Of a stretch of DNA of 61,902 nt, positions 15,184 to 21,641 are shown piece by piece. The notes under the pieces were generated by a model. That model did no database searches. It worked only from the letters and a program-made list of their open reading frames with translations, and was not told where the DNA came from. Each line of letters opens with the position of its first letter. Positions within the stretch are counted from its first letter, which is position 1. The translations under genes and the position numbers were made by a program. The DNA is taken from positions 1 to 61,902 of the forward strand of contig JANMMM010000039.1 of the NCBI GenBank assembly GCA_031373225.1, written 5' to 3'. The stretch is from Phyllobacteriaceae bacterium. GTDB lineage: Bacteria; Pseudomonadota; Alphaproteobacteria; Rhizobiales; Rhizobiaceae.

Positions 15184-16218
15184 TTACGCCGCCTTCAGCT
15201 TCGGCTTTATCAACCCCCGCGCCACCAGCAGCTCGGCAATCTGCACCGCGTTCAGCGCCGCGCCTTTGCGCAGATTGTCCGAGACGATCCACATGGCAAG
15301 CCCGTTCTCCACCGTGATATCCTCGCGGATGCGGGAAATGTAGGTGGCGTCTTCGCCGGCGCTTTCGACCGGGGTCGCGTAGCCGCCGTCCTCATGACGG
15401 TCGATGACCAGGCACCCCGGAGCGTTCTCGAGCAGCGCCCGCGCCTCTTCCGGCGAGATCGGCTTTTCGAATTCGATGTTCACCGCCTCGGAATGGCCGA
15501 TGAACACCGGCACGCGCACGCAGGTCGCCGTCAGCTTGATTTTCGGATCGAGCATCTTCTTGGTCTCGGCGACCATCTTCCACTCTTCCTTGGTGTAGCC
15601 ATCCTCCATGAACACATCGATATGCGGGATGACATTGAAGGCAATGCGCTTGGTGAACTTCTTGGTGACGACCGGATCGGCGACAAACACGGCGCGGGTT
15701 TGCGTGAACAATTCGTCCATGCCTTCCTTGCCCGCGCCCGACACCGACTGATAGGTCGAGACGACAACGCGCTTGATAATTGCGGCATCATGCAAGGGCT
15801 TCAACGCCACGACCAATTGGGCGGTCGAGCAGTTTGGATTTGCGATGATGTTGCGCTTCGTAAAACCGGTAATCGCGTCCGGGTTCACTTCCGGCACGAT
15901 CAGCGGCACGTTGGAATCGTAGCGGAAGGCCGACGAGTTATCGATGACGACACAGCCCTGCGCCGCAATCTTCGGCGACCAGATCTTTGAGGTCTCACCG
16001 CCCGCCGACATCAGGCAGATGTCGGTGTCGGAGAAATCAAACTGGTCAAGCACTTTGACCTTCAGCGTCCGGTCCCCGTAAGAAACCTCGGTGCCGAGCG
16101 AGCGCCTTGACGCCAACGCCACAACCTCGTCGGCCGGAAAGCCGCGCTCTTCCAGAATGTTCAGCATCTCACGCCCGACATTTCCCGTCGCCCCGGCGAT
16201 TGCCACCTTGAAACCCAT
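15184..16218 (-). CDS. asd: aspartate-semialdehyde dehydrogenase
   Basis: It has the N-terminus MGFKVAIAGATGNVG and the active-site region IANPNCSTAQ. The length is 344 aa. Confidence 0.95.
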   Translation of the reverse strand: MGFKVAIAGATGNVGREMLNILEERGFPADEVVALASRRSLGTEVSYGDRTLKVKVLDQFDFSDTDICLMSAGGETSKIWSPKIAAQGCVVIDNSSAFRYDSNVPLIVPEVNPDAITGFTKRNIIANPNCSTAQLVVALKPLHDAAIIKRVVVSTYQSVSGAGKEGMDELFTQTRAVFVADPVVTKKFTKRIAFNVIPHIDVFMEDGYTKEEWKMVAETKKMLDPKIKLTATCVRVPVFIGHSEAVNIEFEKPISPEEARALLENAPGCLVIDRHEDGGYATPVESAGEDATYISRIREDITVENGLAMWIVSDNLRKGAALNAVQIAELLVARGLIKPKLKAA

Positions 16219-16539
16219 TGTCTTAAATCCTTTTGCCGCTCCCCGCCCAAACCCGTCACTCAGACGTGATTTTCACTCACCCCGCCAGCCCGGGGGAGTG
16301 TCGGGAAGGCTGAGGCGGTCAATCCTGTTTGGTGGTTTTTTTTGATGTGGTTTTAGCGGAGAAAAGGCGGGCATGGCTGCGGGCGGGGCCCGAAGCGGAC
16401 AGCTCGACAATGGCTTGGCGGAAGCCGCGCATGGTTTTTCCTTTTCTGAGCGGTGCTCATACTGGAAATTGGATAAGAGTCAAACCGCCTAAAGGAAAAC
16501 CAGGTAGCCAACGATGGACAAGTCGCCCCAACTGCTTCC

Positions 16540-18807
16540 TCAGCGACCCCACACAGTGCTGTAGCGCTCCAAAACGTTGACAAAGTCAGCCTCACCTGCA
16601 GGGGTAATTGTTCTAGCGCCGATGCTAACTGGCGCGTGTATAAGTGAATACAATTCCCTCGATACCTCCTCCCTAATTGACTCGATGAGCCTAAAGGGTC
16701 CGGAGGCCAGAAAGATATTTGCTAACTCCATATATCTCCCCTTCTTAACATTCACCGCACTCAAACTTTTTTTAACTTGACTCTCCTGACGGAAATTTAC
16801 CTCATTTAATATCCTGACGCTCGAAACAGAATTCACAAATTTCGCTGTGATCCAGTTGATCAAATTCAAGTCTCCGGGCTCGTAAGACTCAATCATTACG
16901 AAAGGAGCAACCTTCTCCAAATTACCCTCAACAACAAATGGTCCGATTGGCGCCCTCATCAAAGCCAAAGATAAGTACGCGATGTCTTTTACATACTTAT
17001 CGAGAATATAAACCAATTTCGGCAGCGGTCTAACTCTCATCCTCATGAGCTCTCGATCAAATTGAAAATACTCTCCGTACAGTGAAATAACATCACTCTC
17101 AGCAAGTTCAATAATTTTCCATCTCAGAATTTCTTCATTGTAACCAAAGAGTCTCCACAAAATATAGCAAATTTCTGCAACACTGACTGGCTGGTAATTC
17201 TTAATCACCTCTCTCTTTGCCTCTATTGCCCTAACCAGTTGTATTATACGCAACGTCAGCGCTATTTCATTTCCAGTATTTACAAATTTCCCACCAAACG
17301 CACTATCATCATACGGATAATCAAATATAGAGGGAATCAATCTGTTGTCAAACAGAGGAATATCGGCAATTCTTTGGGTAAATTTTCCGGCATTCGTGCT
17401 ATAATAATAATACTTCTGCGGATACTTAAATCCTCCTTTCGTCATTGACTCCACAATTTTGTAGGGTGCCAAGACCCCCACTTGCTTTCTCACGCTCATA
17501 ATGTAGTCGTAATACGCCAGTTGAATTGTCTGCATTTGGGCTCGCCTGTTGGGCCCAAAGGCCCTGTGAAGCGCAGCAGCATAATGCTCACTCGTTTCAG
17601 AACGCTCTAAGAACTCCACGAACCCGTCAAAGTGGAGAGGCCAGTCGCTCGTCATCCACTTTTTGCTGGGCGCAAGTCTGGCCACCTCGCTAATTAAAAA
17701 CGCTCTCCTCTGGCTTACAATTTCAACGAGGTCAGATGGTCCGATTTCAAACGTTCGAACAGACTCAACTTTCTTATAGGGGCTTGTTCGTGAAAAACTT
17801 TCTAACGTTGAAGTTCTCATTACTGCGAGCAAGACAAACCCAACCAAGTCAGTGCTGAGGCCGAGAGAAGCGGAGTCACCACAAAGCTTCTCAAATTTTC
17901 GGATTGCTGAACGTGTTGACTCAAGTTTATCAAATCCATCTAAAACAACTACAAACCGAAAGCCCTTGAGCAAAAGGTAAGAATATACTGCCGCGCCTAT
18001 AACCCTAGGAACTAGCCTCTCGTCAAGAGGTTGCTCAGCAGTTTTTCTCCAGAATACATTTTTCATATTCTCGAGAGTATTTGTAAGATTTAGACGAGCT
18101 TCTTGAGATTCCATCCGACTTACATAATCTCGTAAATATTGATCAAGTCCACGTTTTGCTATATCAATATTGGATATCCTATACAATCTTGATTTAGAAT
18201 GGTAATATCTATAAACAATTTTAGAAATTTGTGCGTAAATCCAAGAAAGCAGATCGTTATTTGGAGGAAAGTCTTTGACTAAGTCTAATCGTACCCATAT
18301 AACTGACTGTCTGTCGAGTTTATCGATATATTGCGCCAAAATATAGTTTAAGAAAAAAGTTTTTCCAGAGCCACGGGGACCGTGAACAATAAATGTCCGC
18401 TGAGAAAGATGATTTAAATCAGCACCCCCCTTTGCAGTTTGCTTCGAAAGCTGCCATTGAAAATTCGCTTCTGTAACTACTTGGTCAACAAAAGTGTCAA
18501 CAGCCTTTGAACTGCGATTCACAAAATTTTCTGAATCGGCTTGTTCTTCGATTGCGCGATTAGAAGAAAAAACATAGCTATCCTTAATTGCACTTGTATT
18601 TTCTGGATCACTAGGATTTGAGGTTATGTGCCCAAGCCTCTTTTGCACATGATCCTCCCGTGGCTCTATGTGGTGCGGCCTAAAACTCAATTCATTTCTA
18701 AAGGGATGGCGCGCCACAGGGTCGGATCGATCCGAGCTTAATTTCGTCAGCATGTCACTGTGCTTCATTGGAGACTTCAGCAGCGAGTCTATTTCGGCCT
18801 TATTCAT
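16540..18807 (-). CDS. large P-loop NTPase (755 aa) with ORC/Cdc6-like AAA+ or STAND-like architecture; function unknown
   Basis: Walker A is VHGPRGSGKT (nt 18358..18381, aa 143-150). Walker B is FVVVLDGFD (aa 285-293). A sensor-like LLAVMRTS motif and a lid-like VRTFEIGPSDLVEIVSQRR motif are present. There is a winged-helix-like segment (VSVAEICYILWRLFGYNEEILRWKIIELAESDVISL). The polar N-terminal ~140 aa and the C-terminal ~170 aa match no family I recognise. Confidence 0.8.
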   Translation of the reverse strand: MNKAEIDSLLKSPMKHSDMLTKLSSDRSDPVARHPFRNELSFRPHHIEPREDHVQKRLGHITSNPSDPENTSAIKDSYVFSSNRAIEEQADSENFVNRSSKAVDTFVDQVVTEANFQWQLSKQTAKGGADLNHLSQRTFIVHGPRGSGKTFFLNYILAQYIDKLDRQSVIWVRLDLVKDFPPNNDLLSWIYAQISKIVYRYYHSKSRLYRISNIDIAKRGLDQYLRDYVSRMESQEARLNLTNTLENMKNVFWRKTAEQPLDERLVPRVIGAAVYSYLLLKGFRFVVVLDGFDKLESTRSAIRKFEKLCGDSASLGLSTDLVGFVLLAVMRTSTLESFSRTSPYKKVESVRTFEIGPSDLVEIVSQRRAFLISEVARLAPSKKWMTSDWPLHFDGFVEFLERSETSEHYAAALHRAFGPNRRAQMQTIQLAYYDYIMSVRKQVGVLAPYKIVESMTKGGFKYPQKYYYYSTNAGKFTQRIADIPLFDNRLIPSIFDYPYDDSAFGGKFVNTGNEIALTLRIIQLVRAIEAKREVIKNYQPVSVAEICYILWRLFGYNEEILRWKIIELAESDVISLYGEYFQFDRELMRMRVRPLPKLVYILDKYVKDIAYLSLALMRAPIGPFVVEGNLEKVAPFVMIESYEPGDLNLINWITAKFVNSVSSVRILNEVNFRQESQVKKSLSAVNVKKGRYMELANIFLASGPFRLIESIREEVSRELYSLIHAPVSIGARTITPAGEADFVNVLERYSTVWGR

Positions 18808-19435
18808 CGACGCTCCAATCTTTGAGTAGTGACTTTAACTGACTTAATGCTGTAGCGACAGTGAAGGGACCTTCAATCAGAGACAACTCAAGGTTTTTTT
18901 CAATCAAACTGACTAATTTGCTGAGTGTCACTGGTAGGCAGGGTAATCCAATCGAAGAACCTCCATTCTTCATTGGCAAAACACGTTGATTTTTGAATTT
19001 CATCGGAATTTTTGATGTCTCGATACCCGGAATGTAAACACAGGGGAGTTCAATTTGTTCTTCGGCTCTTACAGCGCGTATTACGGGTTCTCCCACAATT
19101 ACGCTTAAAGACTTAAAAATCTCACCGTGTGCGAATGCGCCTCTAGGGATAAAATCTTTGTCAATCAAAATATCTTGCGCTTCTCTTATGCATTGGAAGT
19201 AGGTGGAGAAGGTATCACTGTCGTATTTTTCAGATTCAAAACAAGTTATAAAAATACTATCAGATAAGACTTGAACTACGAAATTGTTTTTTTTGGTAAT
19301 TTTCTCTATTTCATGAACGCAGTCAGCGAGGTCTTTATATATTTTGGCAGCGCCTCTGGATCTTACCAATGCGCTGAATCCATATATGTCGATGTAGACG
19401 AGCCAGGCATTGCCCTTTTGCATTTGATTGGACAT
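18800..19435 (-). CDS. minimal class III nucleotidyl cyclase-like (cyclase homology domain / Palm fold) protein, 211 aa
   Basis: By eye it aligns to CHD motifs. LVYIDIYGFSAL aligns with FxDIxGFT (metal Asp D16). QVLSDSIFITCF aligns with the GDxxxA strand (D59). PRGAFAHGEIF aligns with RIGIHTG. GEPVIRAVRAEE aligns with G..VNxAxR (Arg123 kept, Asn replaced by Ile119). Its stop codon overlaps the downstream gene's start. Confidence 0.7.
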   Translation of the reverse strand: MSNQMQKGNAWLVYIDIYGFSALVRSRGAAKIYKDLADCVHEIEKITKKNNFVVQVLSDSIFITCFESEKYDSDTFSTYFQCIREAQDILIDKDFIPRGAFAHGEIFKSLSVIVGEPVIRAVRAEEQIELPCVYIPGIETSKIPMKFKNQRVLPMKNGGSSIGLPCLPVTLSKLVSLIEKNLELSLIEGPFTVATALSQLKSLLKDWSVDE

Positions 19436-19494
19436 TGGTTCCTTGCATCCCCTCCGAGGTGTCAGCCCCTTATTTTTTGATATATTTTTTGCTT

Positions 19495-19523
19495 ATCTTC
19501 GGCACGATTTTGTATTCCGTCAA
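19495..19523 (-). promoter_or_regulatory. possible sigma70-type promoter for the island operon
   Basis: On the minus strand there is TTGACG (19523..19518), a 17-nt spacer, then GAAGAT (19500..19495). An AAGGA Shine-Dalgarno sits a few nt before ATG 19435. This is a weak sequence match only. Confidence 0.25.
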
Positions 19524-19748: not shown

Positions 19749-21641
19749 ATGGCAGACGCAGTAATGGCGGGCGCACCAACCCGCGGCATGACGAGAGAGG
19801 AAAAGAAGGTCATCTTCGCCTCCTCGCTCGGCACCGTTTTCGAATGGTACGATTTTTATCTGTACGGATCACTCGCCGCCTTCATCGGCGCGGCGTTTTT
19901 CTCGCAATATCCGGAAGCCACGCGCAACATTTTCGCACTGCTGGCGTTTGCCGCCGGCTTCCTCGTGCGCCCGTTCGGCGCGCTGGTGTTCGGCCGGCTC
20001 GGCGATCTGGTCGGCCGCAAATACACATTCCTCATCACCATCGTCATTATGGGCCTGTCAACATTCCTGGTCGGTCTCCTGCCCGGCTCGGCGACCATCG
20101 GCATTCTGGCGCCCATTATCCTGATCGGCCTGCGCATGCTGCAGGGTCTGGCGCTCGGCGGTGAATATGGCGGCGCGGCGACCTATGTCGCCGAGCATTC
20201 GCCTCCCGGCAAGCGCGGCTATTACACCTCGTTCATTCAAACCACGGCGACGCTCGGCCTGTTCCTGTCTCTGGTCATTATCCTCGCGCTGCAAACCAAT
20301 ATGAGCAAAGAAGCGTTCGCCGACTATGGCTGGCGCATTCCGTTCCTGCTTTCCGCCATACTGCTCGGCGTGTCCGTCTGGATTCGTCTGCAGATGAATG
20401 AATCGCCGGTGTTCCAGCAGATCAAGGATGAGGGCAAACAGTCAAAAGCGCCGCTGTCGGAAGCCTTCGGCCAGTGGAAAAATGCCAAGATCGCCATTCT
20501 GGCTTTGCTGGGCGCGACTGCCGGTCAGGCGGTGGTCTGGTACACCGGCCAGTTCTACGCCCTGTTCTTCCTGACGAACGTGCTGAAGGTGGACGGCGCT
20601 TCGGTAAACAAAATGGTGGCGGTTTCGCTTCTGCTCGGCACCGGGTTCTTCATTGTGTTTGGCTGGCTCTCGGATAAAATCGGCCGCAAGCCGATCATCA
20701 TGGCGGGTCTCGCTTTGGCGATCCTGACTTACTTCCCGCTGTTCAAAATGCTGACGGAAGCCGCCAATCCGGCGCTTGCAACGGCACAGGCAAGCTCAAT
20801 CGCAACTGTGACAGCAGACCCCAAGGATTGTAACTTCCAGTTTAATCCGACCGGCACGAAGAAGTTCACCACGTCATGCGATATCGCCACGGCCTTCCTG
20901 ACCCGCAACTCGGTGCCTTACAAGCTCGTGGACGGCGCAGCGGGCTCTGTTGCTTCCATTGATCTCGGCGGCGTCAAGGTCGAGTCCTATGACGCGGTCA
21001 AGGCTGGCGACAAGGCGGCGGGCATGAAGGGCGCGTTTGAAAAGAGCGTCAATCTCGCCATGCAGACCGGCGGCTATCCGCTGGTGCGCGATGCGGTCAA
21101 GGTCACTGGCTCCAAGCTTGCGGCGCTGGTTGCTGCAAATCCGGAAGCCAAACTCGACCAGGCGGCGATTGAAGCTGGTGAAAAGACCATGACCAAGGTT
21201 GCCGACGCTGTGACAGCCAAGCTGCTCACCGCTGACGAGGCCAAGGCGATCACCGACGCCGAAGTGCCGGTCTATTCCGTCAAAGGCGCCGGCGCGTTCA
21301 AGATGGTGGCCGACGCCGCAGCGGTGAACTGGACCAGGATCATCGCGATCCTGACCCTGCTCGTCATCTACGTGACCATGGTCTACGGCCCGATCGCCGC
21401 ATGGCTCGTGGAAATGTTCCCGACCCGCATCCGCTACACCGGCATGTCGCTGCCTTACCACATCGGCAACGGCTGGTTCGGCGGCCTGCTCCCGGCGACG
21501 GTCTTCGCCATGAGCGCGGCCAAGGGCGACATCTACTACGGCCTCTGGTACCCGATCATCATCGCCGCGACGACGCTCGTCATTGGCATCCTGTTCGTCA
21601 AGGACAACAAAAAGGATCATCTGCTAAAAGACATGGATTGA
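19749..21641 (+). CDS. MFS transporter, metabolite:H+ symporter (MHS/ProP-like) family, with a large extra loop domain
   Basis: The N-terminus is FEWYDFYLYGSLA, with FGRLGDLVGRK and EMFPTRIRYTG motifs. It has 12 predicted TM segments. A ~190-aa hydrophilic insert (aa ~336-528) sits between TM9 and TM10. Confidence 0.85.
   Translation: MADAVMAGAPTRGMTREEKKVIFASSLGTVFEWYDFYLYGSLAAFIGAAFFSQYPEATRNIFALLAFAAGFLVRPFGALVFGRLGDLVGRKYTFLITIVIMGLSTFLVGLLPGSATIGILAPIILIGLRMLQGLALGGEYGGAATYVAEHSPPGKRGYYTSFIQTTATLGLFLSLVIILALQTNMSKEAFADYGWRIPFLLSAILLGVSVWIRLQMNESPVFQQIKDEGKQSKAPLSEAFGQWKNAKIAILALLGATAGQAVVWYTGQFYALFFLTNVLKVDGASVNKMVAVSLLLGTGFFIVFGWLSDKIGRKPIIMAGLALAILTYFPLFKMLTEAANPALATAQASSIATVTADPKDCNFQFNPTGTKKFTTSCDIATAFLTRNSVPYKLVDGAAGSVASIDLGGVKVESYDAVKAGDKAAGMKGAFEKSVNLAMQTGGYPLVRDAVKVTGSKLAALVAANPEAKLDQAAIEAGEKTMTKVADAVTAKLLTADEAKAITDAEVPVYSVKGAGAFKMVADAAAVNWTRIIAILTLLVIYVTMVYGPIAAWLVEMFPTRIRYTGMSLPYHIGNGWFGGLLPATVFAMSAAKGDIYYGLWYPIIIAATTLVIGILFVKDNKKDHLLKDMD

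Follow-up and report, generated by a model that had tools for sequence, protein, structure and literature searches.

A divergent class III cyclase-fold protein and its STAND/ORC-like NTPase partner on a low-GC island form a candidate conflict module

Is a small protein that resembles class III nucleotide cyclases, and whose gene overlaps that of a large P-loop NTPase, a cyclase at all, and what might the two proteins do together? This question is raised by a locus in contig JANMMM010000039.1 of a Phyllobacteriaceae bacterium (GenBank assembly GCA_031373225.1), of which we analyzed a stretch of 61,902 nucleotides, called the window from here on. A low-GC island in the window holds two genes only, one for a 211-aa protein that we call cyclase homology domain-like (CHD-like) and one for an NTPase of 755 aa, laid out as follows.

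16600..19500, no strand: low-GC island with two genes only (GC 0.417 against 0.588 in the rest of the window)
18800..19435, minus strand: gene of the CHD-like protein, 211 aa (open reading frame [ORF], profile search against the PDB, AlphaFold2 [AF2] and Foldseek)
16540..18807, minus strand: gene of the STAND/ORC-Cdc6-like P-loop NTPase, 755 aa (sub-threshold Pfam and NCBIfam matches; homologues P0003-P0008)
18800..18807, minus strand: 8-nt overlap (ATGAATAA) between the CHD-like stop and the NTPase start (ORF coordinates)

An earlier sequence-only reading had aligned the 211-aa protein by eye to class III cyclases and had considered a possible link to the adjacent NTPase. We give about an even chance to the following interpretation: that a divergent, previously unmodelled class III-fold family and its obligate STAND/ORC-like NTPase partner make up a mobile conflict module, in which the NTPase would control a non-canonical cyclase-fold effector.

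With the 211-aa sequence alone, Pfam (even at E ≤ 10), PADLOC and NCBIfam returned no family, phmmer against the PDB gave no match, a word-indexed protein search found only the query itself, and the AF2 model was poor (pLDDT 45); as Pfam finds nothing with the single sequence, the relationship is detectable only by profile or structure methods. A profile built from 92 homologues with a mean identity of ~25%, the alignment on which the family counts given below are based, had as its best PDB match the cyclase domain of Rv1625c (1yk9, E = 1.5e-7), with profile positions 7-177 aligned to residues 8-185 of that domain. Seven further cyclase sequences lay below 1e-4, namely the mycobacterial Cya chains 4p2m, 4p2x, 4p2f, 7yz9, 7yzi and 5o5k (E from 7e-7 to 4e-6) and one soluble guanylyl cyclase (sGC, 2e-5). 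The AF2 model obtained with the 92-sequence alignment reached a pLDDT of 95.7 and a pTM of 0.92, and its top 50 Foldseek matches in the PDB were all class III adenylyl or guanylyl cyclases (E from 1e-8 to 1e-6, TM 0.55-0.75), while in a viral structure library the best matches were guanylate-cyclase-domain proteins (3e-8). PF00211 was reached at E < 1 by 6/92 family members (best 0.0055), all below the gathering score, and sequence identity to class III cyclases is 12-16%. The resemblance first seen by eye is therefore real: profile and structure searches led to no unrelated fold, no homologue lacked either of the two Asp residues D16 and D59, and we regard the assignment to the class III cyclase fold, as modelled and ranked here, as secure.

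The same profile, AF2 and Foldseek rankings lead us to reject the other palm enzymes. A GGDEF-, Cas10- or mCpol-type enzyme making cyclic di- or oligonucleotides could be suspected, as the palm fold is common, the SDS-I-F segment is superficially GGDEF-like, and weak matches to GGDEF_2 (0.022) and to mCpol (0.17) occur in one family member each. We nevertheless find this explanation very improbable, since GGDEF and Cas10 chains are absent from the PDB profile matches (E ≤ 10) and from the Foldseek top 50, GGDEF matches in the viral library (8e-3 to 0.19) are ~10^5-fold weaker than those of the cyclase domains, and DxxGF[ST] and RGxxxG are class III signatures. A class III-type site might all the same give an intermolecular product. 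Taken as candidate families, GGDEF (PF00990) was dropped because the motif reads LSDSIF and not GG[DE]EF, and Cas10 Palm/mCpol (PF18182) because its single member match was accompanied by none in the PDB profile or Foldseek searches. Membership of DUF2652 (PF10851) was also rejected: the window protein gave no match at E ≤ 10, and the family was absent among the 25 Pfam families for the 92 members and in 10 members scanned at E ≤ 10.

Two parts of the protein can be told apart from the alignment and the model.

18932..19420, minus strand: cyclase-homology fold, ~aa 6-168 (hidden Markov model [HMM] alignment and AF2 secondary structure)
18806..18925, minus strand: family-specific C-terminal two-helix hairpin, aa 171-210 (helices 171-188 and 191-210, high pLDDT)

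The modelled fold consists of strand 6-18, helices 20-27 and 29-48, strands 53-57 and 60-66, helix 73-92, strand 96-108, helix 116-127 and strands 133-136, 151-155 and 160-166. The domain had been put at ~135 aa, but it measures ~165 aa and reaches ~aa 168, because strands 151-155 and 160-166 together with K156 align with the VKGKG region of cyclases. Likewise, the rest of the protein is not the motif-less tail of ~75 aa described before; it is ~40 aa long and has the conserved motif G189-P190...A194..W197, with G189 in 87/92 homologues, P190 and A194 in 80/92 each, and W197 in 77/92 (the window protein has L at 197). Conservation of the hairpin across the family makes it a family-specific structural element and not a featureless tail; as proposed earlier, it might dock on the NTPase.

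What can be expected of this fold depends on the residues in its active site. The four peptides quoted in the sequence-only reading, LVYIDIYGFSAL (D16), QVLSDSIFITCF (D59), PRGAFAHGEIF (R98-G99, G104) and GEPVIRAVRAEE (I119, R123), are all encoded by the ORF at 18800-19435 on the minus strand and were correctly numbered. The codons of interest, with their Rv1625c equivalents, are these.

19388..19390, minus strand: D16, first metal-binding Asp (DIYGF motif), 92/92; the Asp of FADIVGFT in Rv1625c
19259..19261, minus strand: D59, second metal-binding Asp (SDS motif), 92/92; the Asp of SGDSYM in Rv1625c
19142..19144, minus strand: R98 (RG motif), R in 88 and K in 4 of 92; the R of PLRVGLATG
19079..19081, minus strand: I119, position of the transition-state/ribose-orienting Asn; N372 of Rv1625c in GDAVNVASR
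19067..19069, minus strand: R123, position of the transition-state Arg; the R of VASRME
18968..18970, minus strand: K156, first Lys of VKGKG, K in 70 and R in 16 of 92 (Rv1625c alignment)

The metal-binding pair was rightly recognized: D16 and D59 align with the Asp pair of cyclases, are invariant, and stand within the family motifs W-V-x-Y-L-D-V-Y-G-F-S and F-S-D-S-I-F-L, respectively. G99 is found in 92/92 and E125 in 90/92 homologues, R98 and K156 are each ~95% basic, and G104, G115, A121, P131, P136 and P168 are further invariant or near-invariant positions. R98 is presumably the equivalent of the phosphate-binding R484 in AC5 C1.

The residues expected to carry out cyclization tell a different story. 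The Ile noted in place of the catalytic Asn is indeed I119 at the cyclase Asn position, and the position is hydrophobic family-wide (I27, L25, V23, A6, E4 and others; I/L/V/A in 81/92), with Asn in 0/92. The substitution is less unusual than had been implied, as DUF2652 cyclase-like proteins have a conserved Ile at this position (PMC4886424), and Rv1900c, which that article cites as an active cyclase, has His there. The Arg that had been called retained is present in the window protein as R123, but it is not a family feature; with R25, K17, E9, Q8, S6, A5, N5 and D4 at this position, R or K in only 42/92 (46%), its retention is true of the window sequence alone.

The purine-reading residues are replaced as well. 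Position 55, the equivalent of K296 of Rv1625c, is Q in the window protein and aromatic in 56/92 homologues (Y33, F23), and position 112, the equivalent of D365, is V in the window protein and aliphatic in 64/92 (I29, L24, V11); the register of both is fixed by the 1yk9 chain being the K296E/F363R/D365C mutant. The family thus has Y/F and I/L/V where the Lys/Asp (ATP) or Glu/Cys-type (GTP) specificity pair would stand. Among heterodimeric cyclases, the profile matched only Asp-bearing subunits (AC5 C1, the C1 of AC8 and AC9, and sGC alpha). A C2-type half hidden in the NTPase was not detected when the two families were compared by hhalign (probability 0.5%), and an HMM scan of all window ORFs showed no second CHD. 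Judged by conservation, the family keeps the Mg2+-triphosphate half-site and has lost both the ribose/transition-state pair and the purine-reading pair.

How much chemistry would such a site allow? With the half-site kept (D16, D59, the G19-F20 loop, R98 and K156) and the Asn, the Arg and the specificity pair gone, the CHD-like protein would most likely bind NTP-Mg and perform a non-canonical nucleotidyl transfer or cyclization. From this residue pattern, a role as an ordinary cAMP or cGMP synthase seems unlikely, and the loss of the Asn/Arg and base-reading residues suggests that the substrate nucleotide or the acceptor would be another one, or that the missing residues would come from elsewhere in trans. 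Since the fold and the metal site agree with class III cyclases and the Asn and specificity positions do not, annotation of the gene as an adenylate or guanylate cyclase is unwarranted.

The main rival is a non-catalytic regulatory subunit, a pseudo-enzyme that would only bind nucleotide (NTP-Mg or cyclic) and allosterically control or cap the NTPase. The forskolin pseudo-site of mammalian adenylyl cyclases, a degenerate CHD site that acts as a regulator, speaks for it, as do the Asn missing from every homologue and the unconserved Arg and base-specifying residues. Conflict systems offer precedents too (Kaur et al., PMC7159879). Pseudo-enzymes, however, usually lose first the very residues that are kept here, with both Asp invariant at such a low mean identity and R98 and K156 nearly always basic, and Rv1900c, as cited in PMC4886424, is an active cyclase without the Asn. 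We consider the pseudo-enzyme possible but rather unlikely, and the strict retention of D16, D59, R98 and K156 favors catalysis over mere binding in the putative effector.

The partner protein has the hallmarks of a P-loop NTPase, with Walker A (GxRGxGKT) and Walker B (DGxD) motifs conserved in nine homologues.

18358..18381, minus strand: Walker A of the NTPase, GPRGSGKT, aa 143-150 (G146, G148, K149 and T150 invariant, 9 homologues)
17929..17940, minus strand: Walker B of the NTPase, hhhhDGFD, D290-G291-x-D293 (D290, G291 and D293 invariant, 9 homologues)

In Pfam, 9/9 of these homologues matched AAA_16 (best 2.3e-6) and 6/9 matched NACHT, none of them reaching the gathering score; further sub-threshold matches were to ORC-CDC6-like, nSTAND and KAP families. 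ORC4 was matched at the P-loop only. In NCBIfam the NTPase matched the Sll1717-family ATPase at 1.4e-8, below cutoff, and no papers on Sll1717 were found in the literature searched. The N-terminal domain (aa 1-130, 18420-18807) is as conserved as the ATPase core, with D29, R57, G59, N64, P65, Y78 and N97 invariant and a motif RRLGHxxxNP, and these 130 aa had no match in Pfam, PADLOC or NCBIfam. The cyclase-fold protein might dock on this domain or have its active site complemented by it. No nuclease, TIR, transmembrane or helix-turn-helix (HTH) domain was recognizable in the NTPase, and Pfam found no HTH/LuxR.

Is the pairing of the two genes more than an accident of this genome? The CHD-like gene has a Shine-Dalgarno-like AAGGA 4 nt 5′ of its ATG, and its overlap with the NTPase gene suggests that translation of the two is coupled; similar overlaps or short gaps separate the genes in the homologous loci. 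A CHD-like gene lies immediately upstream in 6/6 distinct NTPase homologues (E < 1e-60, 31-45% identity). Starting independently from the CHD-like protein, an NTPase was found immediately downstream in 11/14 loci, one of which (L011) has a marginal 27-aa NTPase match at a contig end, and the remaining three contigs break off inside the CHD-like gene or no more than ~310 nt from it. The locus scans made with a smaller alignment were narrow, using one peptide pattern, and gave 10 loci. No CHD-NTPase fusion was seen in any distinct locus examined. The tie to the adjacent NTPase that had been proposed from the window holds in every locus that could be checked, and this linkage argues that the CHD-like protein is functionally tied to the NTPase. 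A remote NTPase relative (L009, 57-2972; 25% identical across one third of the protein) was also seen, and the gene upstream of it encodes an unrelated predicted membrane protein of 178 aa, not a cyclase-fold protein, so other small proteins may serve as partners of the NTPase scaffold.

When 1.84 billion cluster representatives were searched exhaustively with phmmer, 181 relatives of the CHD-like protein were recovered at E ≤ 1e-3, and 47 of these also passed E ≤ 1e-10. With few exceptions, the 181 have 200-250 aa and were matched over their full length. These relatives are clusters at 50% identity, and nearly all are singletons, which means that the family is rare but widely scattered; the named hosts of homologous loci include a Hyphomicrobiaceae and a Pseudomonadales metagenome-assembled genome. 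In PHROG we observed weak matches of both proteins to groups of unknown function, phrog_23933 for the CHD-like protein (1.4e-6, aa 11-125) and phrog_14719 for the NTPase (1.2e-6, aa 124-375). These matches hint at related pairs in phages or prophages, of which the phage, plasmid and IMG/VR searches described below found none.

In the window, the island sits between asd and an MFS transporter gene, identified from their translations, in a region with phoU-phoB, asd, leuB and parAB that is alphaproteobacterial and chromosomal in appearance. The low GC content is not peculiar to this genome, since the module falls below its flanks in 11/11 loci, a signature of horizontal transfer. No tRNA or integrase was found at the island borders, and a promoter and terminator scan of the island was uninformative. 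Just outside both island ends there is an imperfect 20-nt direct repeat (16338-16357 and 19473-19492, TTTTTTGATGTGGTTTTAGC and TTTTTTGATATATTTTTTGC, 80% identity), which could be an insertion scar, an att-like duplication, or chance. A perfect 14-nt inverted repeat (16089-16102 and 19823-19836, CGGTGCCGAGCGAG and CTCGCTCGGCACCG), with its two arms within the asd and MFS genes that flank the island, is probably due to chance.

Neighbors of the module were also recorded in other loci. The closest module, with 45% NTPase identity (L001, 1-4742), has a complete QatABCD operon directly upstream and a caspase-like Peptidase_C14 gene on its downstream side; the operon encodes a KAP NTPase, QatB, a 451-aa protein without annotation where QatC is expected, and TatD. 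L005 has HD-CE, a TrwB-like ATPase, a PD-(D/E)XK/Cas4-like gene, a serine recombinase and AbiJ/Abi_C as neighbors, and L023 has an Eco57I methylase and a BsuBI/PstI endonuclease, that is, restriction-modification. HicAB is near the module in L007 and L022, the latter also with SIR2_2 and an ABC/AAA_21 ATPase, and a relaxase (Replic_Relax) is the neighbor in L004.

These surroundings bear on two other explanations. One is a diverged but canonical housekeeping class III enzyme that makes cAMP or cGMP under ATPase control, in the manner of the mycobacterial CHD-ATPase-LuxR proteins, whose architecture is known (PMC3466318) and whose fold is shared. Given the low-GC insertion, the patchy singleton clusters, the defense and mobile-element neighbors, the replaced specificity pair and lost Asn, and an NTPase in which Pfam sees no HTH/LuxR output domain, we find this scarcely probable. 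The other takes the pair not as an anti-phage system but as selfish or maintenance cargo, such as an addiction pair of the toxin-antitoxin type, or as a stress switch without immune function. Two closely coupled genes in one operon on DNA that was acquired horizontally would fit this, as would HicAB and the relaxase adjoining the module in some loci and the lack of matches to defense-database models; yet a STAND/ORC-like NTPase of ~750 aa whose C-terminal region is long is a typical sensor of defense systems, several loci lie beside bona fide defense systems (Qat, restriction-modification, Abi), and the module was found on 0/72,556 plasmids. An addiction pair or stress switch is in our judgment improbable, less so than the housekeeping enzyme.

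Taken together, the island pair looks like a candidate defense module, so far undescribed. In the proposed mechanism, the NTPase would act as an ATP-dependent sensor or switch, and the CHD-like protein, encoded by a gene of its own, would serve it as effector or signal generator. Class III active sites form solely at dimer interfaces, and activity of the CHD-like protein may appear only once it is assembled or dimerized by the NTPase. Several observations weigh against this interpretation, and the main one concerns a signaling model: nothing recognizable would receive or act on a diffusible signal, as neither protein has a recognizable downstream receptor or effector domain (nuclease, TIR or transmembrane), so that only the NTPase itself could be the receiver. 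In addition, the family-wide loss of the Asn and the variable Arg are expected to cripple canonical cyclization, tblastn and pattern searches of 50,697 phage records, 72,556 plasmids and IMG/VR turned up no homologues, neither protein is covered by a PADLOC model, with P-loop-level matches only, and one locus (L020) lies among housekeeping genes, beside dnaG-rpoD.

A more specific version, which we put forward with little confidence, is a new STAND-controlled immune module whose effector is a stand-alone "half-site" cyclase-fold enzyme. Here, either NTPase oligomerization in response to a trigger would assemble CHD dimers or R57, N64 and N97 of the NTPase N-terminal domain would supply the Asn/Arg function in trans, and an unusual nucleotide product or NTP depletion would arrest the infected cell.

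If the conflict-module interpretation is true, it defines a family of at least 181 clusters (50% identity) for which Pfam, NCBIfam and PADLOC have no models, and the class III superfamily gains a lineage that keeps the metal/triphosphate half-site without the residues thought to define cyclization and purine choice. Such a lineage would lend itself to testing which class III residues the chemistry really needs. If the protein is instead a pseudo-enzyme, it would be a case of a cyclase fold taken over to regulate an NTPase by sensing nucleotides. The strict coupling to a STAND-like NTPase and the mobile, defense-flanked islands make the pair a concrete and cloneable candidate for a nucleotide-based conflict system. 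No cyclase-plus-STAND two-gene defense system is described in the literature searched, and neither there nor in PADLOC, NCBIfam or Pfam did we find this active-site pattern combined with a split into two genes. Already known are the cyclase-STAND fusion of the Rv0386 type and cyclase-fold enzymes in defense, as in Pycsar/Pucsar, and it is against these and other systems that the module has to be placed.

The homodimeric class III cyclases (Rv1625c/Cya, 1yk9/4p2f/7yz9; CyaC, 1wc0; Cya2, 2w01; CyaB, 3r5g; PF00211) have the same fold of ~165 residues and share the DxxGF[ST] and [SG]D metal motifs, the RG...G strand, the G-x-x-V-x-x-A-x-x-x-E helix and a basic residue in the KGKG region. The CHD-like family differs from them in having I/L/V for Asn, a variable Arg, Y/F and I/L/V for the Lys/Asp pair, and an extra conserved C-terminal two-helix hairpin, and the G104-G115 hairpin of the CHD-like protein is ~7 residues shorter than that of Rv1625c (a gap in the HMM alignment). 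Its pattern resembles the Asp-bearing half of heterodimeric cyclases (mammalian C1, sGC alpha), in which the C1/alpha half reportedly keeps the metal Asp and the phosphate-binding Arg while the partner supplies the Asn/Arg and the base-specifying residues. Unlike C1 and sGC alpha, the CHD-like protein has no C2/beta-type partner in the NTPase or the window, and it keeps the C2-like K156.

Among fused architectures, the mycobacterial CHD-ATPase(AAA_16/NB-ARC)-TPR-LuxR proteins (Rv0386, Rv1358 and Rv2488c) likewise couple a CHD to a STAND-type NTPase, and Rv0386 has non-canonical substrate-selecting residues. Fusion of a CHD to an ATPase and LuxR is a known architecture in all three (PMC3466318). 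Each of them is one chain that includes an HTH output, and their synthesis of cAMP has been demonstrated, whereas the present module has separate genes, no detectable HTH/LuxR, and a CHD without the Asn. DUF2652 proteins (PF10851; Ramakrishnan et al. 2016, PMC4886424), from Actinobacteria, Bacteroidetes and Proteobacteria, are also stand-alone, cytosolic and remote class III relatives with conserved metal Asp; they differ in keeping the Arg and a Lys/Glu-type specificity pair, and linkage to a STAND-like NTPase is not reported for them.

Closer in setting are the defense systems. Pycsar/Pucsar (PycC/PucC) also use a class III-fold enzyme as the nucleotide-using part of a small mobile defense operon, but there it is accompanied by a cyclic nucleotide (cNMP)-binding TIR or transmembrane effector, whereas the partner here is a P-loop NTPase at every locus, of 755 aa in the window; the PADLOC Pycsar models gave no match to the CHD-like protein. 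The vWA-MoxR/VMAP and related conflict systems likewise place cyclase-fold domains beside NTPases, and cNMP-cyclase domains, some of them predicted to be inactive, serve as effector or signaling domains in such NTPase-centered systems (Kaur, Burroughs, Iyer, Aravind 2020, PMC7159879). They differ in their MoxR/vWA ternary NTPase class and in the fusion of the cyclase to other components, and a two-gene CHD-NTPase architecture is not described in that work. Finally, antiviral STANDs of the Avs/bNACHT type carry an N-terminally fused effector, whereas the module found here, if its NTPase is a sensor of this kind, would keep its putative effector in a separate gene.

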